Below, piece by piece: positions 27,795 to 40,262 of a DNA stretch of 64,000 bases. Source of the DNA: Armatimonadota bacterium (lineage in GTDB: Bacteria; Sysuimicrobiota; Sysuimicrobiia; Sysuimicrobiales; Humicultoraceae); NCBI GenBank assembly GCA_037443565.1, contig JBBIOB010000005.1:25019-89018 (forward strand), read 5' to 3'. The translations under genes were made by a program, and so were the position numbers. Position 1 is the first letter of the stretch; every line of letters begins with the position of its first letter. Below the pieces are notes generated by a model. The model saw only the letters and a program-made list of their open reading frames with translations, was not told the DNA's origin and searched no databases.

Positions 27795-28466
27795 CTAGGC
27801 GGTCGGCCGCACGCGCACCCGTTGCGCGACATCGCGGCCGATGGCGCGGATCTGCTGTTCGATCTGCACCGTGATCGGCCCGTTGAGCGGTCCCACCTCG
27901 CGGACGAGCACCTCGGCGCCGGGCAGCACGCCTACTTGAACCAGATACCGCACGACCGCTTCAGCTTCTTCCGGGATGCTCACAACAGTGACACGATCCC
28001 ACACCTCGAGGCTCTCAAGGGTCGGTAGAGCCTCCAGGCTTGGCTCGGCGTCGTCCGGAATCGGCAGCCCATGCGGACACGTTGAAGGATGCCCCAGCAC
28101 ATCGTCCAGGCGAGCCTCTACCTCGGGGCTGATGACGTGCTCGAGCTTGCACGCTTCGGCATACACCAGCGGCAGGTCCAGATGGAGGAGGTCGGTGAGC
28201 AGGCGCTCGGCCAGGCGCAGCCGGCGGACCACGTGCCGCGCGGTCTGCATCCCGCGCGTGGTCAGCTTGTAGCCTTCGTCTGCATGGGAGCGCAGGAGAC
28301 CCTGGGACTCCAGGCGCTTCAACATCTCATACGAAGAGGGCGCAGAGACCCCCATGTACTCGGCGACCTTCGAGATCGTGACCGGCGGCGTCGACTGCGC
28401 GACCGTGTACACCGCCTTCAGGTACATCTCGGTGCGTTCCGTCCTGGAGATGTCGTGGACCGTCAT
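27795..28466 (-). CDS. DtxR/IdeR/MntR family metal-dependent regulator with FeoA/SH3 domain
   Basis: EMYLKAVY, RLAER.L, EACKLEH, P.TCPHG.PIP and a C-terminal FeoA-like domain. Confidence 0.92.
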   Translation of the reverse strand: MTVHDISRTERTEMYLKAVYTVAQSTPPVTISKVAEYMGVSAPSSYEMLKRLESQGLLRSHADEGYKLTTRGMQTARHVVRRLRLAERLLTDLLHLDLPLVYAEACKLEHVISPEVEARLDDVLGHPSTCPHGLPIPDDAEPSLEALPTLESLEVWDRVTVVSIPEEAEAVVRYLVQVGVLPGAEVLVREVGPLNGPITVQIEQQIRAIGRDVAQRVRVRPTA

Positions 28467-28882
28467 CCCCTGCACTCCTGGCAGACTCCCCTGAAGATGA
28501 GATCCACGCTCCGCACCCTGAATCCCTGCTGCTGGTCAGCTGGCAGGACGACGGCCGGAGCGTCTACCCGGACGTCCAGCACCCGGCCGCACCGGGCGCA
28601 GACCGCGTGGTGATGCGGTCGGGGGTTCGGATCGTACCGGGTGCTCCCAGTCCCCAGGTCCAGGGTTTGGACCGCCCCGATCGCGGCGAGCTCGTGGAGG
28701 ATGGCGTAGACCGTTCGCAGAGAGAGGGTGGGCATCTCGACCAGCCCCCGCCGGTGGAGCGCTTCGGCCGATGGGTGCTGGCCGTCCCCCTCAAGGAGCC
28801 GGCAGATCAACGCTCGCTGTGGCGTCAGCCGGCGGCGGTGGTGCTTGAGCTGCAAGGCCAGAAGACCTCTGGTCTCGCGCAT
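28463..28882 (-). CDS. Fur family regulator
   Basis: RLTPQR, HPSAE, SL.TVY..L, HHHAVCARC and CQEC motifs. Confidence 0.92.
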   Translation of the reverse strand: MRETRGLLALQLKHHRRRLTPQRALICRLLEGDGQHPSAEALHRRGLVEMPTLSLRTVYAILHELAAIGAVQTLDLGTGSTRYDPNPRPHHHAVCARCGRVLDVRVDAPAVVLPADQQQGFRVRSVDLIFRGVCQECRG

Positions 28883-28909
28883 CCCCTCACCCAACTGCGA
28901 CGTGTGTTA

Positions 28910-28928
28910 CCCAACAGCAATTGTTGGG
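28910..28928. promoter_or_regulatory. inverted repeat, candidate operator
   Basis: CCCAACA-GCAAT-TGTTGGG in the divergent fur / iron-ABC promoter. Confidence 0.45.
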
Positions 28929-28964
28929 ACATCGGTTCCAGAATGGATTGCCTCAAGTCAAGAA

Positions 28965-28983
28965 TAAGGATAGCCTAAATCCG
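28965..28983. promoter_or_regulatory. DtxR/IdeR-like box
   Basis: TAAGGATAGCCTAA matches 13 of the first 14 positions of consensus TWAGGTWAGSCTWACCTWA; the last 5 positions do not match. Confidence 0.55.
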
Positions 28984-29056
28984 GAGCAGGCTCAATGGTG
29001 GCTCGATGGCCGAGACACCCCGTCGGGATACCGGATGCGGCTCTAGGGAGGTCTGC

Positions 29057-30079
29057 ATGATGCTGGGCAGGATGGTGCTCATTCTGGCAGCCATCGGCGT
29101 GCTGCTCGTCGGGATGCTCCCGGCGTCGGCTCAGCCGGCAGCGATCGTCGTGTATTCCGGGAGGCGGGAGCCGCTGATCCTGCCCCTAATCGAACGCTTC
29201 CGGAGTGGGGCGCGGATCCCGGTGACGGTTCGCTCCGGCGGCATCGGCGAACTGGCCAACCTGGTCCTCGAGGAGCGCAGCCGGCCCCGGGCCGATGCCT
29301 TAGTCTCCAACGAAGTGTCGGTCCTAGAGGTCCTGCGGCGAGAGGGTGTGCTCGACCCGTACCTGGGGGCCGCGGTGCGGCATGTGCCGCGGGAGTTCCG
29401 GGCACACGACGGGACCTGGATCGGTCTCTCCCTGCGGGCCCACGTGCTCATGGTCAACCGGGACCGGCTGCGGGAGCTCGGCCTGGAGCCGCCGGCGTCG
29501 ATGACCGACCTGGGCGATCCCAGATGGCGCGGCCGGATCGTGATGCCGGTCCTGACCAACGAGTATGTTGTCGCCTGGCTGTCCGCGCTGCGCCTGGCGC
29601 GCGGCGACGGCTGGACCGAGGAGTTCCTCCGGAGACTGCGCGAGAACCGGCCGATCCACGTGGCTGGCGGCACTCAAGTTCGGCAGGCCGTGGCCCGCGG
29701 CGAAGCCGCCGTCGGCGTGGCCAACCACTATTACTATCATCTCCAAGTTGCCGAGGGGAGCCGGAACATCGACATCGTCTACCCTGATCAAGCGCCCGAC
29801 GGGATGGGCGTGCTGGTCTCCCCGACAGGGGTCGCGATCATCATGGGCGGGCCGAATCCAGCCGGGGCCCGCAGGCTCGTCGACTTCCTCGCCGGCGACC
29901 GCACCGCGCAGGGGTTCTACGCGCGCGCCAACTACGAGTACCCGATCATCGACGGCATCCCGGTGCATCCCGACGTCCGGCCGCTGGCCCGCGTGAAGCG
30001 GATGACCGTGACCTACCAGCAGCTCGGCGAACTGCGGGACAGCACGCTGCGGCTGATCCGTGAGGGTGCCTTCCGCTAG
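29057..30079 (+). CDS. Fe(III) ABC transporter substrate-binding protein (FbpA/FutA-like)
   Basis: VYSGR, ANHYYY (Tyr iron ligands) and NYEYP motifs. Confidence 0.88.
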   Translation: MMLGRMVLILAAIGVLLVGMLPASAQPAAIVVYSGRREPLILPLIERFRSGARIPVTVRSGGIGELANLVLEERSRPRADALVSNEVSVLEVLRREGVLDPYLGAAVRHVPREFRAHDGTWIGLSLRAHVLMVNRDRLRELGLEPPASMTDLGDPRWRGRIVMPVLTNEYVVAWLSALRLARGDGWTEEFLRRLRENRPIHVAGGTQVRQAVARGEAAVGVANHYYYHLQVAEGSRNIDIVYPDQAPDGMGVLVSPTGVAIIMGGPNPAGARRLVDFLAGDRTAQGFYARANYEYPIIDGIPVHPDVRPLARVKRMTVTYQQLGELRDSTLRLIREGAFR

Positions 30080-31700
30080 CGCGGGGACCCTGATCACCGC
30101 GCGGCCGCCAGCCGGGCGCCGTGCGGTTCCCTGGGCCCTGCTGCTGTCGTCGGCGGCCGTTGCTGCCGTCATCGCCGGCCCGATGGTCTTCCTCATCGCG
30201 CGGGCCCTTGCCGGCGGCCAGACGACGCTGGCGGTACTGCTGGCCCCGCGCACGCTACACCTGCTGCTGTCCACCCTTGCGCTGGCCGCGGCCGCGAGTG
30301 CGCTGTCTCTGGCGCTCGGCGCGGCCCTGGCGTTCGTGGTGGAGCGGACCGACCTGCCGCGGAAGGGGTTCTGGCGGGTGGCCCTGGCGCTGCCGCTGGC
30401 CATCCCCCCGTACATCGGCGCGATCGTCTACCTCGATCTGCTCAGCCGCGGGGGCCTCCTCGACCGGGTCGCCGGGATTGCTCTGCCGCCGACAGGCCTG
30501 GCCGGCGCGGCGTGCGTGGTCGGGCTCTTCACCTATCCGTACAGCTTCCTGTTGACCTCGGCGGCGCTGCGGCGGATCAACCGTAGTCTTGAAGAAGTCG
30601 CGCGCACGACCGGTCTGGGGCCGCTGCGCATCTTCTGGACGGTCACCCTGCCGCTGATCCGTCCGGCGATCGGGGCGGGCATCTTCTTCCCGTCGCTGTA
30701 CGCCCTTTCCGACTTCGGCACGATGGTGCTGCTCCGGTACGACACTCTGGCCACCGAGCTCTTCTATCAGCTCACCGCGCTGTTCGACCGGTCGGCCGCC
30801 GCGGCGCTCGGCGCCGCCGCCATCGCCCTCACCCTGGGCTTTCTCTGGTTGGAGGCCCGGCTGCGCGGCCGGGGCCGCCACTACCAGACCGACGCGTCAT
30901 GGCGGCCGCCTGCGCCACTTCGTTTGGGGCGCCGTCGCGCGGCTGCACTGGCCCTGGTGGGCGGCGTGGCAGGTCTCGCTCTGGCCGTGCCTGCCGGGGC
31001 CCTGGCGGCATGGGCGCTTCAGGGCGCCTTCTACCCATCGCCCGCAGAGCAGATGTGGATGTCGAGTGCCGCCAGTCCGTGGCGGGCTGCGTGGGAGAGC
31101 CTCAGCATCAGCGGCGTTGCGGCGACGGTGATCGTCGCGCTGGCGCTCCCGCTGGCCTACCTGCGCACGAGGTTCCCCGGCGCCGAGGCCTGGGCCATCT
31201 GGGTCATGGGACAGACGGGATACGCGCTGCCGGGCATCGTCGTGGTCCTCGGCGTGGCCTTCCTGACCAACACCGTGGCGCCGTGGCTCTACGGTACCCT
31301 GGTGGTGATGGTGGGGGCGTTCATGGTGCGCTACATGTCGCAGGCGCTGCGGGCGGTCGAGTCCGGGCTCTCACAGGTCCCACCCCGGCTCGGCGAGGCC
31401 GCCAGAGGGCTGGGCGAGCGGCCGGCAGGCGTGTTCCGCCGGATCGAGATGCCACTGCTGCGCTCGAGCCTCGTCGCGGGATGGGCGCTGGTGTTCCTCA
31501 ATGTCCTCAAGGATTTGCCGGTGAATCTCTTGTTGCGGCCCGCGGGCTTTGATACGCTGCCGGTACGCACCTGGCTGTCGGCCACCGACGGCATCTACAC
31601 GCAGGCTGCGCTGCCGGGCCTGCTGTTGATCGTGTGCGCGGCGGTGCCCCTGGTGCTGCTGCTCCGCGGCGAGGCTGCCCAACGGTTGGAGATCACATGA
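30060..31700 (+). CDS. Fe(III) ABC transporter permease (FbpB-like)
   Basis: Duplicated permease with two EAA loops (LEEVAR..G, LGEAAR.LG). Confidence 0.9.
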   Translation: MRVPSASAGTLITARPPAGRRAVPWALLLSSAAVAAVIAGPMVFLIARALAGGQTTLAVLLAPRTLHLLLSTLALAAAASALSLALGAALAFVVERTDLPRKGFWRVALALPLAIPPYIGAIVYLDLLSRGGLLDRVAGIALPPTGLAGAACVVGLFTYPYSFLLTSAALRRINRSLEEVARTTGLGPLRIFWTVTLPLIRPAIGAGIFFPSLYALSDFGTMVLLRYDTLATELFYQLTALFDRSAAAALGAAAIALTLGFLWLEARLRGRGRHYQTDASWRPPAPLRLGRRRAAALALVGGVAGLALAVPAGALAAWALQGAFYPSPAEQMWMSSAASPWRAAWESLSISGVAATVIVALALPLAYLRTRFPGAEAWAIWVMGQTGYALPGIVVVLGVAFLTNTVAPWLYGTLVVMVGAFMVRYMSQALRAVESGLSQVPPRLGEAARGLGERPAGVFRRIEMPLLRSSLVAGWALVFLNVLKDLPVNLLLRPAGFDTLPVRTWLSATDGIYTQAALPGLLLIVCAAVPLVLLLRGEAAQRLEIT

Positions 31701-32860
31701 GGAACACGCCGCCGAACCCTCGGGTGGTCGTCATCCAGGACGTCGTCCGCCGATTCGACGACGGCGCGGCCGCGGTCGACGGCTTCTCCCTCGAGGTCGC
31801 CCAGGGTGAGATCCTCGCGCTGCTCGGGCCCAGCGGCAGTGGGAAGACCACGGTCCTGCGCCTCGTCGCCGGCTTCGAGAGGCCGGACGCCGGCGCGATC
31901 TGGATCGCCGGCCGGCAGGTCGCCGGCGGAGGAGTGTGGATCCCACCGGAGGCGCGCGGCGTCGGCATGGTCTTCCAGGACTACGCGCTCTTTCCCCACC
32001 TCACCGTCGCCGAGAACGTCGCGTTCGGGCTGCGGTGCCTGCTGGCGATTGATCGGGGCCCGCGCACCCAGGAGGTGCTCTCGCTCGTCGGCATGGAAGG
32101 GTTCGCGGTGCGGTATCCGCACGAGCTGTCGGGCGGGCAGCAGCAGCGCGTGGCGCTCGCACGCGCCATGGCGCCGCGGCCGTTTGCCGTGTTGCTCGAC
32201 GAGCCGTTCTCGAACCTCGATGCCGACCTGCGCGGGCAGTTGCGCGAGGAGGTCCGCGCCATCCTCAAAGCCACCGGCACCAGCGCCATCTTCGTCACGC
32301 ACGATCAAGAAGAAGCCCTGTTGCTTGGGGATCGTGTCGCCGTGATCAACCACGGTCGGCTCGAGCAGGTCGGCACGCCGGAAGGGATCTTCCACGCTCC
32401 GCAGACGCGGTTCGTGGCCGCGTTCTTCGGCCGCGCGGACTTCTTGCCCGCCGCAGCAACCAGTCACGGGCTTCTGACCGAGGCGGGGCTCGTCGCCCAG
32501 CGGATGGCACCCGCCAACGGCGAGCCCATCGCCGAGCAGGTCGAGATTCTCGTGCGTCCCGACGACGTGGAGATCGAGCCCTCGGCTGATGGCCAGGGCA
32601 CCGTGGTGGCCCGGCTGTTTGTCGGATCCGAGATCATCTATCGAGTTCAGCTTCCCTCGGGACGTGTCGTGCACAGCCGGCAGCCGCATACCGCCGGGGT
32701 GATGCAGGGCGACCGGGTGGCCGTGCGGATTGCCCCCGGGCATTCACTGGTCTGTTTCAAGGACGGCCGCGCGGTGCCGACGCCCAGGCCACCTTCCGAC
32801 GGCGAGGGGTCCGCGGATGGAATGATCTCGCGCCGCACGATGGTTTCAGGGGACGGATGA
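31697..32860 (+). CDS. Fe(III) ABC transporter ATP-binding protein (FbpC-like)
   Basis: GPSGSGKTT, FQDYALFPH, LSGGQQQR and a C-terminal TOBE region. Confidence 0.92.
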   Translation: MRNTPPNPRVVVIQDVVRRFDDGAAAVDGFSLEVAQGEILALLGPSGSGKTTVLRLVAGFERPDAGAIWIAGRQVAGGGVWIPPEARGVGMVFQDYALFPHLTVAENVAFGLRCLLAIDRGPRTQEVLSLVGMEGFAVRYPHELSGGQQQRVALARAMAPRPFAVLLDEPFSNLDADLRGQLREEVRAILKATGTSAIFVTHDQEEALLLGDRVAVINHGRLEQVGTPEGIFHAPQTRFVAAFFGRADFLPAAATSHGLLTEAGLVAQRMAPANGEPIAEQVEILVRPDDVEIEPSADGQGTVVARLFVGSEIIYRVQLPSGRVVHSRQPHTAGVMQGDRVAVRIAPGHSLVCFKDGRAVPTPRPPSDGEGSADGMISRRTMVSGDG

Positions 32861-33597
32861 ACGCGCAGCGCCGTGGTTGGCTGGGCACAGCCCTCACCGC
32901 CCGATCGAGTGGGTGGCTCCTCGATCTACGCGGGGGCGCGCTGCCCTACGGCGAGGTCTGGGTGTGGCAGCGCGAGCTGCTGCGGGCGCGGCAGAACGGC
33001 GCCATCCCTGACGTGCTGCTCCTCCTGGAGCACCTGCCGGTCGTGACGCTCGGCCGCAGTACCCAGCGGTCGCACCTGCTGCTCGACCGTCAGGCGCTCG
33101 CCGCGCGGAGCATCGAGGTGTACGAGATCGAGCGCGGAGGGAGTGTCACCTACCATGGGCCGGGCCAGCTCATCGGGTACCCGATTCTCGATCTTCGCCG
33201 GTGGCGTGACGATGTCGGGTGGTTCGTGCGGACGCTCGAAGCGACGATCATCGAGACCCTGGCGGCCTTTGGCATCGACGCCGGCCGACGACCCGGCTTC
33301 CCTGGCGTCTGGGTCGGGGAGGCCAAGATCTGCGCGCTGGGCGTTGCCGTCAGACGCCATGTCACCATGCACGGGTTTGCCCTGAACGTGACCACCGACC
33401 TCGACGGATTCGGGGTCATCAACCCATGCGGTCTCGGCCTCCCGGTCACGTCCATGGCCGCGGTGCTCGGTCGCCCTGTGGATCTCGAAACCGTCCGACG
33501 GGTATGCGCCGAGCGATTCGCCGACCTCTTCGGCCTACGGTTCGATCGGATCACGCTCGATGCGGCGCGGGCCGCCGCCGGGGCGGTGGGGGTGTAG
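32857..33597 (+). CDS. lipB: octanoyltransferase
   Basis: LEH.PV.TLG, RGGSVTYHGPGQ, KICALG, HGFALN and NPCG motifs. Confidence 0.93.
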   Translation: MNAQRRGWLGTALTARSSGWLLDLRGGALPYGEVWVWQRELLRARQNGAIPDVLLLLEHLPVVTLGRSTQRSHLLLDRQALAARSIEVYEIERGGSVTYHGPGQLIGYPILDLRRWRDDVGWFVRTLEATIIETLAAFGIDAGRRPGFPGVWVGEAKICALGVAVRRHVTMHGFALNVTTDLDGFGVINPCGLGLPVTSMAAVLGRPVDLETVRRVCAERFADLFGLRFDRITLDAARAAAGAVGV

Positions 33598-33603
33598 CCG
33601 GCG

Positions 33604-33897
33604 GTGGCGACGGTGCTGATTCCCGCCCCCCTGCGGCAGTTGACCGGCGGACGGTCGCGCGTCGAGATCGCGGCGACGTCGGTCGGTGAAGTGCTCGACC
33701 GTCTGGACGCTGAGCACCCGGGCGTGCGCAGCTACCTGTGCGACGAGACCGGGCAGGTGAGAGCGTACATCAACGTGTTCGTGAACCAGACCGAAATCCG
33801 TCAGGCCGGCGGCCTGCAGGCGCCGGTAGGTCCGGCCGATGAGGTTGCGATCATCCCCGCGATGGCCGGGGGTGGCTCGGCCCTCGCGGCAAGGTGA
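33604..33897 (+). CDS. MoaD/ThiS/CysO-like ubiquitin-fold sulfur carrier with C-terminal extension
   Basis: V.IP.PLR.LTGG, INVFVN and IIPAMAGG followed by GSALAAR. Confidence 0.88.
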   Translation: MATVLIPAPLRQLTGGRSRVEIAATSVGEVLDRLDAEHPGVRSYLCDETGQVRAYINVFVNQTEIRQAGGLQAPVGPADEVAIIPAMAGGGSALAAR

Positions 33898-34739
33898 TGG
33901 CTACGACGTCGCCGGCCTCGGCTGATCCGACCACTCCCTCCGCCCCACGGCTGCCCACGCTGAGAATCGTTCCGTCATCCGCGGTCCTGCTGCACGAGGA
34001 CAGCGACCCGCTGCGGGTTGAGCGGCTGGTGCAGGTCCTGGCGGCCGACGGCGTACTGCGCAATCCGCCGGTGGCCGCGGCATTGGAACATGGGGAGTAC
34101 GTGATTCTCGACGGCGCCAATCGGGTCACCGCGCTCGCCCGGGCCGGCTATCCGGACCAGCTCATTCAACTGGTCGAGTACGATGATGCGCGTGTGGCTC
34201 TGGAGGTCTGGGCGCACCTACTGAATGACGAAGCGGTCCTGCCGTCCGGCGGTGACTGGGAACGCCTGCCGGCGGACGCAGTCCACGCCGGGTTGACCGA
34301 CGGCAGGCTCTCGTGCGGCATCATCACGCACGCGGGCGCCCGAGGGCTGCCCTCGCCGCCCGATCTGGCCGGGCGCATCGCCGCGATCAGCAACGTGGTG
34401 GCGCACTACGCGGGCCGAACCCAGATCTACCGCGTGCCCCCCGCACCACTGGAGGCGCTCGGGCAGGAGTTCGGCCGGGCCGGGGGGCTTGTGGTGTTTC
34501 CGCGGTTGACGAAGGCCGACATCCGCGACACCGCGCGTCTCCCGATCAAGCTGCCCAGTGGGATCAGCCGGCACATCGTGCAAGACCGCGCGTTGCGCGT
34601 CAATGTCGATCTGGCGCTGCTGCGCAGCGACACGCCCCTCGCCGACAAGCAGGCACGGCTGGATGCGATGATCCGAGACCGAGTCGCTCAGCACCGCGTG
34701 CGCCGGTATCCGGAGTCCACCGTGCTCTTCGATGACTGA
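33894..34739 (+). CDS. ParB/Srx-fold protein, SbnI/SerK-like free L-serine kinase
   Basis: LLHE..DP.R..RL......G.LRNP and YVILDGANR motifs; C-terminal LP.GISRH. Confidence 0.7.
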   Translation: MMATTSPASADPTTPSAPRLPTLRIVPSSAVLLHEDSDPLRVERLVQVLAADGVLRNPPVAAALEHGEYVILDGANRVTALARAGYPDQLIQLVEYDDARVALEVWAHLLNDEAVLPSGGDWERLPADAVHAGLTDGRLSCGIITHAGARGLPSPPDLAGRIAAISNVVAHYAGRTQIYRVPPAPLEALGQEFGRAGGLVVFPRLTKADIRDTARLPIKLPSGISRHIVQDRALRVNVDLALLRSDTPLADKQARLDAMIRDRVAQHRVRRYPESTVLFDD

Positions 34740-35710
34740 TGTCCGACGACTTCGTGTACGGGCCGTCCCGTCAGATCGGAACGACGCTCCTGGAGCAGAT
34801 TGGTCATACACCGCTGGTGCGGATCAGGCGCATCGGCGACCTGCCGCCCGCCGTCGAGCTGTACGCGAAACTGGAGGGCTTCAACCCCGGTGGATCCGTG
34901 AAGGACCGTCCGGTCCTACGCATGATCGAAGACGCCGAGCGGGCCGGCCTCCTGCCGGAGTCGGGGGACACGCCGACTCTCCTCGATTCGTCGAGCGGTA
35001 ATGCGGGCATCGCCTACGCGATGATCGGCGTGGTCAAGGGGTACCGCGTCACCCTGGTCGTACCGGCGAACGTCACGCAGGAGCGGCTGGGGATCCTGCG
35101 CGCCTACGGCGCAGAGCTGGTGCTCTCCGACCCCCTCGAAGGGTCTGACGGCGCAATGCGGATCGCCCAGCGCATGGTCGAGGAGCAGCCCGATCGGTAT
35201 CTCTATCTCAACCAGTACGCCAACCCAGGGAACTGGCGCGCCCACTACGACGGCACCGGACCGGAGGTTCTCGTCCAGACGCATGGCCGCGTTACGCACT
35301 TCGTGGCAGGGGTGGGAACGACCGGGACCCTGGTGGGCGCGGGGCGGCGGCTGCGGGAAGCCAATCCGACGGTTGAAGTGATCGCCGCAGAACCCGACGG
35401 CGCCCTGCACGGCATCGAGGGGTGGAAGCATCTGCCGACCGCGATCACGCCCGCCATCTACGATCCCGGTGTTGCACACCGGATCGTCCGGGTCACGACC
35501 GAAGACGCCTACGGCATGACCCGACGACTCGCCACGTGTGAAGGCCTGTTCGTGGGGATTTCCTCAGGCGCCGCCCTCGTGGCCGGGCTCCACGTGGCGC
35601 GGGACCTGACCGACGGGGTCGTCGTCGTGATCTTTCCCGATGCAGGGGATCGATATCTGTCCACCCCGGTCTGGCGCGGGGGTCCCGCCGGCGCATCCGA
35701 CCGTGTATAA
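34739..35710 (+). CDS. PLP-dependent cysteine synthase family (CysM / O-phosphoserine sulfhydrylase-like)
   Basis: IGHTPLV, KLEG.NP.GSVKDR, SSGNAG, NQY.N, GTTGT and GISSGA motifs. Confidence 0.9.
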   Translation: MSDDFVYGPSRQIGTTLLEQIGHTPLVRIRRIGDLPPAVELYAKLEGFNPGGSVKDRPVLRMIEDAERAGLLPESGDTPTLLDSSSGNAGIAYAMIGVVKGYRVTLVVPANVTQERLGILRAYGAELVLSDPLEGSDGAMRIAQRMVEEQPDRYLYLNQYANPGNWRAHYDGTGPEVLVQTHGRVTHFVAGVGTTGTLVGAGRRLREANPTVEVIAAEPDGALHGIEGWKHLPTAITPAIYDPGVAHRIVRVTTEDAYGMTRRLATCEGLFVGISSGAALVAGLHVARDLTDGVVVVIFPDAGDRYLSTPVWRGGPAGASDRV

Positions 35711-35718
35711 TTGAGTAA

Positions 35719-36132
35719 ATGGGTCTAGAATTGCCGAAGGCGGCGGTGACGGCCATCGTCGGGCACGCCCGGGACGAGTACCCAAACGAGTGCTGCGGCT
35801 TGCTGGCCGGCCGCGGCACCAGGGTCGAACGGCTGTTCCGCGGACGGAACGTCGACCGGAGCCCGTACACCTATCGGCTCGACCCGCAGGAGCAGCTGCA
35901 GTTCTTCAAGGCGATCGAGGCCGAGGGGTTGGAGCTGCTGGGCATCTACCACTCGCACACGCAGTCGCCGGCGTACCCGTCGCGGACGGACGTGGCCCGG
36001 GCCTTCTATCCCGACGCCGCGTACGTGATCGTGTCGCTGCGGAACCAGACGTCGGATCCCGGCGATCCCGAGATCCGGGCGTTTCGCATCAGGGACGGCC
36101 AGGTGACCGAAGAGGAGCTGGTCGAAGTATGA
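35719..36132 (+). CDS. M67/JAMM metallopeptidase (Mec+-like)
   Basis: P.ECCG and YHSHT...AYPS.TD JAMM motif. Confidence 0.92.
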   Translation: MGLELPKAAVTAIVGHARDEYPNECCGLLAGRGTRVERLFRGRNVDRSPYTYRLDPQEQLQFFKAIEAEGLELLGIYHSHTQSPAYPSRTDVARAFYPDAAYVIVSLRNQTSDPGDPEIRAFRIRDGQVTEEELVEV

Positions 36133-36560
36133 AGGTGTCCACGCGGGCCGAGTACGGCATCCGCGCGCTGCTCGAACTGGCTGCCCACTATGGGCAGGGG
36201 CCGATGCAGACACACGTGATCGCCCAGCGGCGGGGTCTGCCTGAACCCTATCTCAACCAGCTGATGAGCACGCTGCGGCAGGCGGGACTGGTGACGAGCA
36301 AGCGCGGCCCAACGGGTGGGCACGCGCTGGCCCGGCCGCCGGAGGCCATCAGCTTGCGTGAAGCCTTCAGTGTGCTGGAAGGCACCACGTCGCCGTGGTG
36401 GTGTGTCGAAGTGGACGATCCCGACTGCGACTACGCCGCTGGCTGCGGGCTGCGGCCGGTGTGGCGGGCCCTCCAGGCCGCCGCCGAAGGCGTACTCGAC
36501 CGGCTCACGCTGGCTGACCTGCGCGCTGAACGCGATCGCCAGCCAGCGGCCCGCCGGTAG
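36129..36560 (+). CDS. Rrf2 family regulator (IscR/CymR-like, three Cys)
   Basis: STRAEYG, YL.Q....L, S.RG..GG..L and C-x7-C-x5-C. Confidence 0.9.
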   Translation: MKVSTRAEYGIRALLELAAHYGQGPMQTHVIAQRRGLPEPYLNQLMSTLRQAGLVTSKRGPTGGHALARPPEAISLREAFSVLEGTTSPWWCVEVDDPDCDYAAGCGLRPVWRALQAAAEGVLDRLTLADLRAERDRQPAARR

Positions 36561-36569
36561 CGGGCGCAA

Positions 36570-36597
36570 GGAAATACCGGGGCGCCGTCTCGCGTTG
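36570..36597 (+). promoter_or_regulatory. candidate SigR/SigH-type promoter
   Basis: GGAAAT-N18-GTTG just upstream of the ECF sigma gene; consensus is GGAAT-N18-GTT. Confidence 0.5.
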
Positions 36598-36611
36598 ACC
36601 ATGGCGGCGCT

Positions 36612-37262
36612 ATGGGTGCGTGTGCGGTGAACGCTGATTACAGAGGCGCGACCCTGACCGACGAGGAGCGCGACCGCTTCGAGGCGATCGTCAACGAGCA
36701 CCTCGATGGGCTGTACGGGACCGCCCTGCGCCTGACGCGCAATCGTGCGACGGCCGAGGACCTGGTCCAGGACACATTTCTGAAAGCCTGGCGATCGTTT
36801 CGCACCTTCCAGGCCGGCACGAATGCCCGCGCGTGGCTGTACAAGATCCTCATGAACGCGTACATCGATAGCTACCGGCGGTCGAGCCGCGCGCCCGACA
36901 TCGTGGACCACGAGGACGTGGGGGACTTCTACCTCTACGCCAAGGCGCAGGAGAGCGAGGACCTGAAGCGCGCCGGCGATCCCGAGGAGATCCTGCTCTC
37001 AAAGATCATGGACGCCGATGTCAAGGACGCGCTCGAGCAGGTGCCCGAGCCGTTCCGGGCGGCGGTCATCCTGGCCGACCTCCAGGACTTCTCCTACCGG
37101 GAGATCGCCGACATCCTGGAGATCCCGATCGGCACGGTCATGTCGAGGCTCTACCGAGGCCGGCGCCACCTGCAGCGCCTGCTGTGGGACTACGCAAAGC
37201 GGGCCGGGTACACCAACGGGGAAACGTCGCCCCCGTCGACGCCATCTCCCGTGGTGCCATGA
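36612..37262 (+). CDS. ECF sigma factor (SigR/SigH-like)
   Basis: AEDLVQDT..KA, GTN.RAWL..IL.N and YREIA.IL.IPIGTVMSRL.RGR motifs. Confidence 0.92.
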   Translation: MGACAVNADYRGATLTDEERDRFEAIVNEHLDGLYGTALRLTRNRATAEDLVQDTFLKAWRSFRTFQAGTNARAWLYKILMNAYIDSYRRSSRAPDIVDHEDVGDFYLYAKAQESEDLKRAGDPEEILLSKIMDADVKDALEQVPEPFRAAVILADLQDFSYREIADILEIPIGTVMSRLYRGRRHLQRLLWDYAKRAGYTNGETSPPSTPSPVVP

Positions 37263-37495
37263 GCGAGATCGACTGCAACGAAGTGCTCCGGCGCCTCTGG
37301 GCGTATCTCGACGGCGAAGCCGACGAGGCCGCCTGCCAGGACCTCGAGGTGCACATCGCGCGCTGCCTGGGGTGTCGGCACCAAGTCGACTTCGAAGTCC
37401 GCCTGCGGCAGATCATCCAGAGCAAGTGCCGGAGCGAGCCCGCGCCTCAGAAGCTCCGCGAGGACTTGCGGCGACTGCTGGGTAACTCTCCTTAG
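37259..37495 (+). CDS. zinc anti-sigma factor (RsrA/RshA-like)
   Basis: C..V...L..YLDGE and HxxxCxxC (HIARCLGC); ATGA overlap with the sigma gene. Confidence 0.9.
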
Positions 37496-37527
37496 GCACG
37501 AGCCCCATCCCGTCCAAGGAGGGTCCC

Positions 37528-37908
37528 ATGTCCAAAGAGGTCATTCGCAGCGATCAGGCGCCGCTGCCCATCGGCCCATACTCGCAGGCGATCCGCGCCG
37601 GAGGCCTGCTGTACCTGGCCGGGCAGATCCCCCTTGACCCGGCGACCGGGCAGATCGTGGGCGCCGACATCAAGGCGCAGACACGCCAGGTGCTGGCGAA
37701 CCTGTCGGCGGTCCTCGGCGCCGCCGGCTCCTCGTTCGACCGCGTCGTGAAGACCACGATCTTCCTCAAGGACATGAACGACTTCGGGGCGATGAACGAG
37801 GAGTACGCGAGCGCGTTCCGCGAGTTGCCCCCGGCCCGCACCACGGTGCAGGTCGCACGGCTGCCCCGCGACGCGCTGGTGGAGATCGACTGCATCGCGC
37901 TGGCGTAG
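37528..37908 (+). CDS. ridA: RidA/YjgF enamine deaminase
   Basis: [22 protein letters not shown] and VEI motifs. Confidence 0.93.
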
Positions 37909-38050
37909 CACCTGCCGGCGACTTACGCGCTGTGGCTCATTGGGACCGTTCTGGTCCCATCCTACTGTGGTACTATCAGGATGATCTGTCCGCCGGAGCG
38001 TCAGGGTGAACCATCGCATCGGCGGATGGATCCAGGGGCTTGCGACGCAC

Positions 38051-38124
38051 TGGGGGGTCGGCTAACGGCAAGCCGGCGGTCTTTGGAACCGCAGATTCAG
38101 GTTCGAGTCCTGGCCCCCCAGCCA
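38051..38124 (+). tRNA. tRNA-Gln (anticodon TTG), CCA encoded
   Basis: TGGGGGG/CCCCCCA acceptor stem, GCGGT-CTTTGGA-ACCGC anticodon arm, GGTTCGAGTCC T-arm. Confidence 0.95.
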
Positions 38125-38128
38125 CCTC

Positions 38129-39121
38129 TCAGCGCAGCGCCTCAGCGAAACTGTCCCGATACGCAAAGAGCGCCGGTACCCCGCCCGTGTGGATGAACAC
38201 CACCGACTGGTCCTTCGCGAACAGGCCCTGCTGCACCAGGTCGATCAGGCCCGCCATCGCCTTGCCCGTGTAGACCGGGTCGAGCAGGATGCCCTCGGTG
38301 CGGGCGACCAGGCGCACCGCCTCCACCATCGCGGCATTCGGCACGCCGTACCCTTCTCGTGAGTACTCGTCGTGGACGACGATCTCGTCCGCGGAGAAGC
38401 TCAGCGGCGCCCCAAGCACCTGCACGGCCTCGCGGGCGACGCGCAGCACCATCTCAACCAGTTCATCCCTGGGCTCACCGTCGCTGATGCCGATCAATCG
38501 GGCGTTGCTATGCAGGAGCTTCGCCCCCGCGACCAGGCCGCCGTGCGTTCCGCCGCTGCCCGAGGCGAATACCACCGCGTCAACCGCGATGCCCATGGCA
38601 TTCGCCTGGGTCTCCATCTCGTGGAGCGCGTTGACGTAGCCCAGCGCGCCCACGCCGTTGGAGCCGCCCGTCGGAATGATGTAGGGAGTCCTCCCCCCGG
38701 CCCGAAGGTCGCGCGCGACCTGCTCCATCACCGGTTTGCGGTCCGCCCCTGCCTCGACGAGCACCACCTCCGCGCCCAAGATCTGATAGAGTAGCAGGTT
38801 GCCCGTGACCTCGGCGTTGGGGGCGCGGCTCAACACCAGGACGCACCGCATTCCGGCCTTGACCGCCGCCGCCGCGGCCTGGCGGCAGTGATTCGACTGC
38901 AGGCCGCCCTCGGTGATGAGCGCGTCCGAACCCTTCGCGCGCGCATCGCCGATCAGGAACTCCAGTTTGCGGGTCTTGTTGCCGCCCGTGGCCAGGCCCG
39001 TGCAGTCGTCGCGCTTGATGAACAGCCTGGGGCCGCCGAGGGTCTTCGTCAGCGCCGGCATGAACTCGAGCGGCGTGGGAAGATGGGCGAGCGAAACGCG
39101 GGGCAGGTGTGGCGGTAGCAT
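38129..39121 (-). CDS. D-cysteine desulfhydrase / ACC deaminase family PLP enzyme
   Basis: KRDD.TG...GGNK.RKLE, QSNH, SGGT.GG, LDPVYTGK and HTGG motifs. Confidence 0.92.
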   Translation of the reverse strand: MLPPHLPRVSLAHLPTPLEFMPALTKTLGGPRLFIKRDDCTGLATGGNKTRKLEFLIGDARAKGSDALITEGGLQSNHCRQAAAAAVKAGMRCVLVLSRAPNAEVTGNLLLYQILGAEVVLVEAGADRKPVMEQVARDLRAGGRTPYIIPTGGSNGVGALGYVNALHEMETQANAMGIAVDAVVFASGSGGTHGGLVAGAKLLHSNARLIGISDGEPRDELVEMVLRVAREAVQVLGAPLSFSADEIVVHDEYSREGYGVPNAAMVEAVRLVARTEGILLDPVYTGKAMAGLIDLVQQGLFAKDQSVVFIHTGGVPALFAYRDSFAEALR

Positions 39122-39259
39122 CGAAGGGCCCTTCGTGTAGATCTGGGGGATGTCCTCTCCAGGCACACGAGGCCTCCCGCGTGCGCCCCGTAGGGGAAGT
39201 GCGATCGAGGCTACCTCCTCCCGATCGTCGCCACGCAGCGACCCGATCTCCTCCGGGAC

Positions 39260-39668: not shown

Positions 39669-40262
39669 ATGGCGACCGACGACGACCGCGCCCGGTTCGA
39701 GGCGCTGGTCACCGCCCATCTCGACGAGCTCTACGGGACGGGGCTGCGCCTGACGCGCAACCGGGCGGCCGCCGAGGACCTCGTGCAGGAGACGTTCCTC
39801 AAAGCCTGGCGGTCGTTTCGTACATTTCAGACGGGCTCCAACGGGCGCGCATGGCTCTACCGGATCCTCATGAACGCCCACATCGACAGCCATCGCCGCG
39901 CGTCCAGAACCCCCGAGATTCTGGCGGACGATGAGGGAGGAAACTTCTCCCTCTACGCCAGGGCCCGCGAGGGTGCCACGGCGGCACGCGAGGGCAACCC
40001 CGAAGAGATCCTGCTGGCCAAGATCATGGATGCCGACGTCGCCTCAGCGTTGGAGCAGATTCCTGAGATGTTCAGGGCCGCGGTGATTCTGGCCGACCTG
40101 CAGGAGTTCTCCTATCGGGAGATCGCCGAGATCCTCGATATTCCGATCGGCACGGTGATGTCGCGTCTGTACCGGGGGCGGCGGCTTCTCCAGCGGCTGC
40201 TGTGGGACCGCGCGCGGCGCGGCGGTTACGGGAACGGCGCGATGGCCGGGGCGCAGGACTAG
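39669..40262 (+). CDS. ECF sigma factor, close paralog of 36612-37262, no adjacent anti-sigma
   Basis: Near-identical blocks such as LRLTRNRA.AEDLVQ.TFLKAWRSFRTFQ and PEEILL.KIMDADV. Confidence 0.9.
   Translation: MATDDDRARFEALVTAHLDELYGTGLRLTRNRAAAEDLVQETFLKAWRSFRTFQTGSNGRAWLYRILMNAHIDSHRRASRTPEILADDEGGNFSLYARAREGATAAREGNPEEILLAKIMDADVASALEQIPEMFRAAVILADLQEFSYREIAEILDIPIGTVMSRLYRGRRLLQRLLWDRARRGGYGNGAMAGAQD

Follow-up and report, generated by a model that had tools for sequence, protein, structure and literature searches.

In textbook bacterial cysteine synthesis, serine is first activated by serine acetyltransferase. A carrier-based route is known from Mycobacterium tuberculosis, whose CysO-CysM-Mec operon (Rv1335, Rv1336, Rv1334) encodes, like the locus analysed here, a ThiS-fold Gly-Gly carrier, a CysM-type enzyme and a JAMM peptidase, with a MoeZ-type E1-rhodanese encoded outside the operon; this route draws phosphoserine from the serine pathway (SerA/SerC), and the operon is under oxidative-stress control. 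Staphylococcus SbnI and Thermococcus SerK are ParB/Srx-fold kinases that phosphorylate free L-serine, and to our knowledge no other free-serine kinases are known, the former serving siderophore synthesis in staphylococci and the latter occurring in a few hyperthermophilic archaea. In the S. aureus staphyloferrin B system, SbnI, which also binds heme and acts as a transcriptional regulator, stands beside the fold-type-II PLP beta-replacement enzyme SbnA of the diaminopropionate pathway, while in T. kodakarensis the ADP-dependent SerK and a sulfide-using cysteine synthase are proposed to convert serine via O-phosphoserine to cysteine without a carrier protein. Clear-cut SerK homologs were not found in bacteria, according to Makino 2016 (PMC5120207). 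A kinase-like DUF1015 protein, 'SerBK', which is remotely similar to SbnI in structure and encoded with serA and serC, has been proposed to interconvert serine and phosphoserine (PMC13759103).

A locus from an uncultured member of the phylum CSP1-3/Sysuimicrobiota combines parts of these systems. An ORF check of the window, i.e. the whole 64-kb stretch of DNA analysed, confirmed five ORFs at 33604-36560 in the following order:

33604..33897, + strand, ubiquitin-like sulfur carrier (CysO-like, ThiS/MoaD fold), 97 aa (PF02597, E 2e-13)
33894..34739, + strand, SbnI/SerK-like two-domain ParB/Srx-fold protein, predicted free L-serine kinase, 281 aa (NF033589, PDB 5uje, Foldseek)
34739..35710, + strand, CysM-type fold-type-II PLP beta-replacement enzyme, 323 aa (PALP 3e-66; TIGR01138 cysM 356 bits, under the cut-off of 394)
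35719..36132, + strand, JAMM/MPN+ zinc peptidase (Mec-like), 137 aa (Prok-JAB 3.3e-26)
36129..36560, + strand, Rrf2-family transcriptional regulator, 143 aa (PF02082 2.5e-36)

The successive junctions read GTGA/TGATG, TGATG, an 8-nt gap and ATGA; the five genes are translationally coupled, and the coordinates and junctions bear out the tight coupling described in the initial annotation. An alternative ATG start of the 281-aa protein lies at 33897, its first ~20 residues being disordered and not conserved. The operon departs from that of M. tuberculosis in that a gene for an SbnI-like kinase separates those of the carrier and CysM, a tail follows the Gly-Gly of the carrier, and an Rrf2 gene comes last. 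The neighbouring pair of a ParB/Srx-fold protein and a fold-type-II PLP enzyme recalls SbnI-SbnA, but the client here is a predicted cysteine synthase. Unlike the T. kodakarensis system of the same fold, which is archaeal, the operon is bacterial and includes a carrier. SerBK differs from the 281-aa protein in belonging to the DUF1015 family and in being proposed for serine synthesis or utilisation, not cysteine, with no link to a sulfur carrier. A search of article texts found no description of a free-serine kinase with a carrier-based cysteine pathway; the gene tables of two CSP1-3 papers may list cysteine genes. The parts of the operon are known, and their combination is new.

A promoter scan of 32500-38200 found no promoter-like site, and the two terminator-like sites in the same interval did not stand out from the shuffled expectation of 1.3. 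Beside the operon, profile search placed a SigH/RsrA-type thiol-stress sigma/anti-sigma pair. The Rrf2 protein, which probably regulates the operon, scored over the cut-off of TIGR00738 (115.9 bits) and under those of its best NCBIfam equivalog, CymR (98 bits), and of IscR (71 bits); it holds three cysteines, C92, C100 and C106. The ABC transporter upstream best matched 2-aminoethylphosphonate, polyamine and ferric-type systems, all under cut-off, so no sulfur role is claimed for it; import of sulfate or thiosulfate was considered and dropped on these matches.

No Pfam family matched the 281-aa protein. SbnI was its best match in both sequence and structure, yet at about 20-23% identity. The NCBIfam SbnI model NF033589 aligned residues 22-275 with model positions 7-248 of 254 (E 1.7e-15) with a score of 57.1 bits (cut-off 350), and the SerK model NF053625 matched marginally (E 0.006, 15.8 bits, cut-off 380). 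Both are narrow equivalog models whose curated cut-offs the protein did not reach, and, judged by its sequence, it is a distant relative and a member of neither equivalog; with the SbnI score this far below the cut-off, function is transferred across that low identity. A PDB sequence search returned the SbnI structures 5uje over the full length (E 1.3e-17) and 6nr6 (E 2.4e-09). With the AlphaFold (AF2) model (pLDDT 92.5), the top nine Foldseek matches were SbnI (5uje, 6nr6, 5ujd), 1vk1 and SerK (5x0k, 5x0b, 5x0g, 5x0e, 5x0j), which were the sole whole-length matches, with 231-264 aligned columns and target-normalised TM of 0.70-0.82 (0.70-0.81 for SerK). ParB, Noc and sulfiredoxin structures matched only ~80 residues, at a query-normalised TM of about 0.25. 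The model thus has both the N-terminal ParB/Srx fold and the family-specific C-terminal domain.

The LLHE and LDGxxR motifs noticed earlier were present. Alignment to 6nr6_A paired SbnI E20 (DLHE) with E35 and SbnI D58 (DGVHR) with D73 (DGANR here), SbnI Glu20 and Asp58 being the residues that we take to be catalytic, and H34, E35, D73, G74 and R77 were invariant in 20 homologs. On HMM, sequence and fold comparison alike, the protein sided with SbnI/SerK rather than DNA-binding ParB, an identity rejected on fold coverage, with ParB and Noc covering only the N-domain. A sulfiredoxin-like function was rejected because DGANR lacks the catalytic Cys. As the initial annotation had foreseen, named homologs carry labels such as 'hypothetical protein', 'ParB N-terminal domain-containing protein' or 'ParB-like chromosome segregation protein Spo0J'.

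The carrier and the peptidase agree with the mycobacterial scheme. The PF02597 (ThiS) match spans carrier residues 4-90, and SAMP1/MoaD-type NCBIfam models matched under their cut-offs. The conserved stretch ...IIPAMAGG runs up to G90; beyond it lie seven more residues, GSALAAR, a tail that must come off to free the Gly-Gly. Across 18 carrier orthologs, P85-A86-M87-A88-G89-G90 was invariant and the tails after it varied. Since the invariant AMAGG is followed by either a variable tail or an in-frame fusion to the next gene, a peptidase is required for the carrier. The JAMM motif, read from the translation, is intact (E24 ... H78-x-H80-x7-S88-x2-D91), the desampylase model NF041370 gave 98.8 bits, under its cut-off, and tblastn of the genome with the JAMM query returned the operon gene as the single match.

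The best PDB match of the CysM-type enzyme was E. coli CysM (243.6 bits), an O-acetylserine enzyme that accepts free sulfide or thiosulfate, and M. tuberculosis CysM scored lower, at 212.6 bits. A conserved basic loop, H224-G225-x2-G228-x-K230-H231, aligned where E. coli CysM has R210-R211, with Lys instead of Arg at the R210 position, which, going by the E. coli alignment, probably corresponds to R220 of M. tuberculosis CysM. The enzyme is predicted to be a cysteine synthase dependent on O-phosphoserine and carrier thiocarboxylate, to which the basic loop and the lack of a cysE for making O-acetylserine point indirectly. Neither tblastn nor profile search found a second CysK/CysM/CBS-family gene in the genome; the other 12 PALP matches are of threonine synthase/dehydratase, TrpB and D-Cys desulfhydrase types. 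A predicted complex of the enzyme with the mature carrier (residues 1-90) scored 0.59 ('weak support'; best of three controls 0.00), its runs sharing at least 53% of contacts with a partner pLDDT of at least 86. Of 80 solved complexes, 58 passed the mark applied, as did 2 of 110 mismatched pairs; at scores of 0.60 or under, the passes were only seven solved complexes and both of these mismatches. A solved structure exists for the similar M. tuberculosis CysM-CysO complex, which the predictor may have memorised; the prediction was not counted as evidence.

Elsewhere in this 98.7%-complete genome, the profile search for cysE, a check proposed at the outset, found no gene (best match 35 bits, cut-off 210), so that, unlike in M. 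tuberculosis, there is no parallel cysE/CysK route. The companion check for moeB/moeZ was positive. Two MoeZ-type E1-rhodanese genes lie outside the operon, at C8:2895-4073 and C10:10944-12119, and would supply the E1-like adenylyltransferase and rhodanese of the carrier pathway; they scored 407 and 393 bits with MoeZ NF005902, under its equivalog cut-off of 647, and 279 and 274 bits with ThiF, with rhodanese matches at the C-terminus. The claim that free sulfide is bypassed is not supported, as charging of the carrier by MoeZ still needs some source of reduced sulfur.

Most likely, the SbnI/SerK relative makes phosphoserine consumed by the cysteine route of the operon, because cysE is lacking and the gene sits between those of the carrier and the cysteine synthase. 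In the reading that we consider probable, a carrier-thiocarboxylate-dependent CysM receives its O-phosphoserine from a free-serine kinase, and the JAMM peptidase has two tasks, trimming the carrier tail and releasing cysteine. The operon would then be a self-contained serine-to-cysteine route in an organism without serine acetyltransferase. From its fold, catalytic residues and context, the 281-aa enzyme would phosphorylate free L-serine to O-phospho-L-serine with ATP or ADP as the donor. The carrier would be made with its short C-terminal tail and cut by the JAMM peptidase to expose Gly-Gly, after which one of the two MoeZ-type enzymes would, as in M. tuberculosis, adenylate it and convert it to the thiocarboxylate. 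CysM would form the aminoacrylate from phosphoserine for attack by the carrier thiocarboxylate; an S-to-N acyl shift and, as with Mec, release of cysteine by the JAMM peptidase would follow. The Rrf2 protein would regulate the operon.

The phylum-wide distribution was in line with such a role. The kinase was present in 88 of 94 CSP1-3/Sysuimicrobiota genomes (53 of the 54 high-quality ones), and cysE scored over cut-off in one of the 94 and in none of the 54; related genomes are not independent, and the pattern may reflect a single ancestral event. Kinase homologs occurred in at least 356 species-level genomes, and neighbourhoods were read at the best 80 of 356 loci. There, a CysM-type gene adjoined the kinase in 47/80, a CBS-type gene in 33/80 and either one in 57/80, a carrier was found in 44/80, a JAMM gene in 52/80, and Rrf2 beside JAMM in 45/80. 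The conserved synteny proposed by the initial annotation was thus recovered in most of these loci, while 23/80 had neither CysM nor CBS beside the kinase, 13 of these with unrelated neighbours. Among Chloroflexota, the kinase domain forms a fusion with a SerA-like dehydrogenase (TIGR01327, 401 bits) or adjoins cystathionine beta-synthase, and another fusion joins it to a serine/threonine dehydratase and a PGDH-like domain; these fusions are an independent link of the kinase to serine/phosphoserine metabolism. In a sample of 251 Chloroflexota genomes, cysE was present in 37 of 104 with the kinase vs. 99 of 147 without it; the lower share among kinase bearers favours the proposed route, and the 37 genomes with both genes count against it.

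A wider reading, which we regard as doubtful, is that the SbnI-like kinase serves as a general serine/phosphoserine gateway in CSP1-3/Sysuimicrobiota and many Chloroflexota, replacing both serine acetyltransferase and SerB, with O-phosphoserine as the substrate of all local beta-replacement enzymes, CBS included. The CBS beside the kinase in 33 of the best 80 loci would then be O-phosphoserine-dependent, an activity of which we know no description.

It is unlikely that the protein interconverts serine and phosphoserine mainly as the last step of serine synthesis in place of SerB, or in serine catabolism towards 3-phosphoglycerate, with CysM drawing on a SerA/SerC-type pathway and the operon position reflecting a shared phosphoserine pool. 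Candidate genes for such a supply exist. The proposed check for serA/serC found no canonical SerC in the genome (25.8 bits), but three short PGDH-like dehydrogenases and an AGT-type class-V aminotransferase, 36% identical to the one beside Chloroflexota SerA-kinase fusions (directly upstream of one such fusion), are encoded. Phosphoserine could also come from 3-phosphoglycerate through these enzymes, and in that case cysteine synthesis could do without the kinase; the earlier claim that phosphoserine is made directly from serine agrees with the fold, motif and synteny checks. No SerB of the TIGR00338 type scored over cut-off in the genome or in any of 60 phylum genomes of at least 90% completeness, but this absence carries little weight, since the model recovered SerB in only 8 of the 14 genomes used as controls. 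The SerA-kinase fusions in Chloroflexota, the GapMind 2026 case that a kinase-like protein can replace serB (PMC13759103) and the tie of SerK to serine assimilation (Makino 2016; PMC5120207) favour a role in serine metabolism, whereas the reverse kinase reaction is thermodynamically unfavourable according to the GapMind authors (PMC13759103). Moreover, the gene lies between carrier and CysM and not beside serA/serC, its homologs are CysM-adjacent in most of the best loci, and the phylum-wide lack of cysE would be left unexplained.

Returning to cysteine synthesis fed by the kinase, it is quite improbable that CysM joins phosphoserine to free sulfide or thiosulfate, while the carrier and JAMM peptidase serve another sulfur transfer. 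E. coli CysM is the closest solved structure, and a second carrier encoded beside a ThrC-like gene implies that carriers have other clients. Against this, carrier, CysM and JAMM genes are coupled here and co-occur in most related loci, relatives carry in-frame CysM-JAMM and carrier-enzyme fusions, and no sulfite reductase domain was found in the genome to turn sulfate into sulfide.

That the 281-aa protein mainly regulates the operon in a nucleotide-dependent way or binds its DNA, instead of being a metabolic enzyme, would suit the NCBIfam name of SbnI, 'bifunctional transcriptional regulator/O-phospho-L-serine synthase', and the wide use of the ParB fold as an NTP switch (PMC12704722), but is very improbable: the catalytic Glu and Asp, together with about 35 further positions spread over both domains, stay invariant even between distant phyla, the protein lacks a helix-turn-helix domain, DNA-binding ParB/Noc align with its N-domain alone, the operon already has its Rrf2 regulator, and the fusions to metabolic enzymes fit an enzyme. 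Action on the carrier, by phosphorylating its C-terminal carboxylate instead of E1 adenylation or by sulfiredoxin-like repair of oxidised sulfur, is scarcely plausible: eight of the 120 listed kinase homologs contain PF02597 as in-frame carrier-kinase fusions (the five read keep AMAGG with a linker of ~20 residues) and the operon has no E1 gene, but the same carrier also occurs as an in-frame fusion with CBS elsewhere, which looks more like a cleavable precursor made by read-through than a functional pairing, two complete MoeZ genes exist, the sulfiredoxin Cys is missing, and the whole-length similarity is to serine kinases.

If the kinase-fed carrier route is true, a phylum widespread in soil, aquifers and hot springs activates serine by direct phosphorylation, and needs serine, a nucleotide and a protein thiocarboxylate to build cysteine. 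This would explain why pathway-prediction tools likely find no cysE step in these genomes, and would give a function to an unannotated family that reaches into at least 356 genomes at the species level. Further testable cases are the arrangements SerA-kinase and CBS-kinase, and free-serine kinases would extend into core bacterial amino-acid metabolism.

The five-gene row that the initial annotation had placed at 33604-36560 was borne out as five + strand ORFs in the order noted:

Carrier, +: 97 aa, ThiS family (E 2e-13)
33894-34739, +: predicted kinase, 281 aa, no Pfam family
CysM-type enzyme, +: PALP 3e-66; best NCBIfam model cysM TIGR01138, 356 bits, under the 394 cut-off
JAMM peptidase, +: Prok-JAB 3.3e-26
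36129-36560, +: Rrf2 regulator (E 2.5e-36)

The successive gene junctions are GTGA/TGATG, TGATG, an 8-nt gap and ATGA, no promoter- or terminator-like signals above chance were found inside the operon region, and only 6 nt separate the carrier gene from the end of the upstream lipB. The Rrf2 regulator carries three cysteines (positions 92, 100, and 106) with a spacing like that of Rrf2 proteins that bind Fe-S clusters, IscR among them, although its best-scoring named model was CymR, which is cluster-less.

The NCBIfam SbnI model spanned the 281-aa protein end to end (residues 22-275 vs. model positions 7-248 of 254, E 1.7e-15) with a score of 57 bits, far under the equivalog cut-off of 350, and the SerK model matched it at E 0.006. 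The sole real matches in a PDB sequence search were three SbnI entries (5uje, 1.3e-17; 6nr6, 2.4e-09; 5ujd, 5.4e-09). In the 6nr6 alignment, SbnI E20 (DLHE) and D58 (DGVHR), which we take to be the residues reported as required for SbnI kinase activity, corresponded to E35 and D73, respectively. When 20 homologs with identities as low as 33% were aligned, 35 positions across both domains proved invariant, among them H34, E35, R41, D73, G74, R77, W106, H108, Y172, R180, G223, R226, H227, R232, R270, Y272, and E274, and the AlphaFold2 model built from this alignment had a mean pLDDT of 92.5. When this model was compared with the PDB by Foldseek, ranks 1-9 were occupied by SbnI (three entries), the P. 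furiosus homolog 1vk1, and the T. kodakarensis free serine kinase (five entries), with 231-264 aligned columns and target-normalised TM of 0.70-0.82, while ParB, Noc, and sulfiredoxin appeared after rank 9 with ~80-100 residues in most rows and query-normalised TM of ~0.25. DNA-binding ParB is therefore not the best structural match, an outcome that would have spoken against the initial annotation.

The cysteine, sulfur, and serine genes were then surveyed in the window's assembly (3.09 Mb, rated 98.7% complete). No cysE was found in this genome, the best match being a hexapeptide-repeat protein at 35 bits vs. a cut-off of 210.65. The operon CysM is its sole CysK/CysM/CBS-family gene, tblastn giving otherwise weak partial matches to other PLP enzymes; the 12 further PALP matches, typed from their sequences and NCBIfam scans of three, appear to be of the threonine synthase or dehydratase, TrpB, and D-cysteine-desulfhydrase types. 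Two ThiF-family genes encode an E1 domain with a C-terminal rhodanese (MoeZ NF005902, 407 and 393 bits, under the equivalog cut-off). No NIR_SIR domain was found in the genome and PAPS_reduct gave a single weak match (32.9 bits), so sulfate assimilation looks absent. Canonical SerC (25.8 bits), SerB (best 30.5 bits), and full-length PGDH (best 268 bits vs. 454) were not found in the genome, which encodes two AGT-type class-V aminotransferases and three short 2-hydroxyacid dehydrogenases. Another sulfur-amino-acid enzyme, a PLP enzyme of the D-cysteine desulfhydrase/ACC-deaminase family, lies near the operon at 38129-39148 (-); its top model was the D-cysteate sulfo-lyase CuyA (431 bits, just under the 450 cut-off), and a paralog is located at C30:7292-8281 of the same genome.

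Within the phylum CSP1-3/Sysuimicrobiota, counting two unpublished genomes (G016 and G024), the kinase was present in 88 of 94 genomes (53 of the 54 high-quality ones) and cysE over the cut-off in one of 94 (none of the 54); the lone cysE-positive genome is 89% complete with 3% contamination. SerB was detected in none of the 60 phylum genomes at least 90% complete, by a model that was positive in just 8 of 14 control genomes. Among 251 Chloroflexota genomes at least 90% complete, with cysE matches taken at E 1e-40 or better, 104 encoded the kinase and 136 encoded cysE (both, 37; kinase only, 67; cysE only, 99; neither, 48), and the odds ratio of 0.27 is a tendency of the two genes to avoid each other rather than a test, because related genomes are not independent. 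cysE is still present in a third of the Chloroflexota genomes that carry the kinase. Spot checks of three genomes fit this pattern, as two with CBS-kinase pairs lacked cysE and one whose kinase gene has unrelated surroundings had it.

A protein search with the 281-aa protein returned 129 homologs, nearly all from uncultured bacteria and named hypothetical or ParB-like at source, and scanning one genome per prokaryotic species gave 356 stretches encoding a kinase relative. Neighborhoods were evaluated in the best 80 of these 356 loci, a sample biased toward close relatives that comprises CSP1-3/Sysuimicrobiota (many labelled Armatimonadota), Chloroflexota, and a few Eisenbacteria, Bacillota, and Proteobacteria. 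A CysM-type gene adjoins the kinase in 47 of the 80 loci and a ~465-aa PALP+CBS-domain gene is the immediate neighbor of the kinase in 33, so that either occurs in 57 and both in 23. The carrier was found within 2.5 kb of the kinase in 44 of the 80, JAMM within 3 kb in 52, and Rrf2 in 45. Two of the PALP+CBS-domain genes were scanned and proved to be cystathionine beta-synthases by TIGR01137 (513 and 535 bits vs. a 510 cut-off). Ten loci, mostly of Anaerolineae, have CBS directly upstream of the kinase and no CysM beside it (L062, L087, L090, L092, L094, L096, L102, L103, L106, and L118); for such CBS-kinase pairs one may ask whether O-phosphoserine is a substrate of the CBS. Further upstream, 26 other loci encode a Cys_Met_Meta_PP enzyme (CGL/CGS type).

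The remaining 23 of the 80 loci contain neither CysM nor CBS. Five of them (L047, L050, L051, L053, and L061) carry a variant operon, lipB-kinase-JAMM-Rrf2, in which both CysM and an intervening carrier are missing; in three a carrier follows downstream, two contain JAMM or MoeZ in the vicinity, and thirteen, some with short flanks, have no carrier, JAMM, or MoeZ, with unrelated neighbors in the ones scanned. Two variant-operon genomes have a second, more divergent kinase copy beside CBS (L102 with L047; L062 with L053).

In Chloroflexota, the kinase domain also forms the C-terminus of larger proteins (loci L132-L134 and L135-L137; genomes G139, G176, G187, G141, G209, and G264). Fusions of 585-590 aa start with a phosphoglycerate-dehydrogenase catalytic region (TIGR01327, 401 bits, model positions 1-315), and those of 913-918 aa consist of a serine/threonine dehydratase, a PGDH-like domain, and the kinase domain. 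Their kinase domains scored 108 bits vs. SbnI and 57 bits vs. SerK, which links the 281-aa protein with the characterised enzymes. A class-V aminotransferase is encoded directly upstream of one SerA-kinase fusion (L132), and HAD hydrolases downstream of the triple fusions at L135 and L136. Independently of the operon, these domain arrangements tie the kinase family to serine and phosphoserine. The evidence works in both directions: an aminotransferase of the window's genome is 36% identical to that at L132, so this genome possibly encodes a non-canonical SerC; further SerC families are listed in GapMind 2026 (PMC13759103).

In-frame fusions also join other pathway parts: carrier-CBS in 10 and CysM-JAMM in 8 of the 80 loci; 8 of the 120 listed homologs of the kinase are 370-376 aa proteins with a ThiS domain. 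The five carrier-kinase fusions read keep ...IIPAMAGG followed by a ~20-residue linker, and stand-alone carriers show an invariant PAMAGG followed by non-conserved tails of 1 to ~25 residues, GSALAAR after the Gly-Gly in the window's carrier. These tails and linkers point to a cysteine-operon carrier that is synthesised in precursor form, for which the JAMM peptidase would be the obvious maturase, besides being the predicted cysteine-releasing enzyme. At locus L013 (G000 C3:22110-23666, -), the genome has a second ThiS-type carrier of 92 aa that terminates exactly at ...IIPAMAGG, with a ThrC-like PLP enzyme (TIGR00260, 270 bits) encoded immediately upstream of it. The pair looks like the MetM/MetO thiocarboxylate-dependent homocysteine route, which GapMind 2026 (PMC13759103) lists for Streptomyces. 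As tblastn of the genome with the operon's JAMM protein detected no second JAMM gene, that of the operon may serve both carriers.

The genes flanking the operon include the following:

Within 27795-32860, -: DtxR/MntR-like and PerR/Fur-like regulators
Within 27795-32860, +: ABC transporter (binding protein, fused double permease of 546 aa, ATPase with TOBE domain)
36612-37262, +: SigH-like ECF sigma factor, directly downstream of the operon (TIGR02947, 198 bits, under cut-off)
37184-37495, +: ZAS anti-sigma factor with H-x3-C-x2-C (RsrA TIGR03988, 70.3 bits, over the 62.5 cut-off)
37528-37908, +: RidA-family enamine/imine deaminase (TIGR00004, 166.6 bits, above cut-off)
39675-40259: second SigH-like sigma gene

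The sigma/anti-sigma pair hints at control by thiol-oxidative stress next to the cysteine operon; ORF clusters matching the two by length and position only occur in 41 and 18 of the 80 loci, respectively. RidA is plausibly a clean-up enzyme for aminoacrylate released by PLP enzymes, and an ORF cluster of its length (126 aa) and position was found in 20 of the 80. The top matches of the ABC transporter were 2-aminoethylphosphonate, polyamine, and ferric-type systems, all under cut-off, and 7 to 18 of the related loci have ORF clusters for its three parts on the upstream side of the operon.

In the most likely scheme, serine would be phosphorylated by the predicted SbnI-like kinase, the CysM-type enzyme would convert phosphoserine to an aminoacrylate intermediate, the MoeZ-charged carrier thiocarboxylate would attack this intermediate, and cysteine would be released by the JAMM peptidase. 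From phosphoserine onward, we take this scheme to be the M. tuberculosis carrier-protein cysteine pathway; in contrast to it, a dedicated phosphoserine supply would be added here. A loop, H224-G225-x2-G228-x-K230-H231, is invariant or nearly invariant among the CysM orthologs and aligns where E. coli CysM carries R210-R211; Arg220, the phosphate-binding residue of M. tuberculosis CysM, presumably belongs to this loop as well.

No description of the carrier-protein cysteine pathway (CysO) joined to a serine kinase was found in the literature searched, which largely excludes subscription journals. GapMind 2026 (PMC13759103) treats the thiocarboxylate route (MetO/MetM) and the serine kinase (DUF1015 SerBK) as separate items, a ParB-CTPase survey (PMC12704722) mentions SerK and SbnI only as known examples, and Makino 2016 (PMC5120207) reports that no clear-cut SerK homologs had been found in bacteria. 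The other matches were an unrelated CysK study and a silage metabolomics paper. The main text of one CSP1-3 genome paper is silent on cysteine or serine, and the other carries a single remark, on a gain of cysteine biosynthesis. Taken together, the operon is real and every part of it has a known relative; what appears to be new is the combination of a predicted free-serine kinase with the carrier-protein route to cysteine in one operon, in a phylum that lacks cysE.
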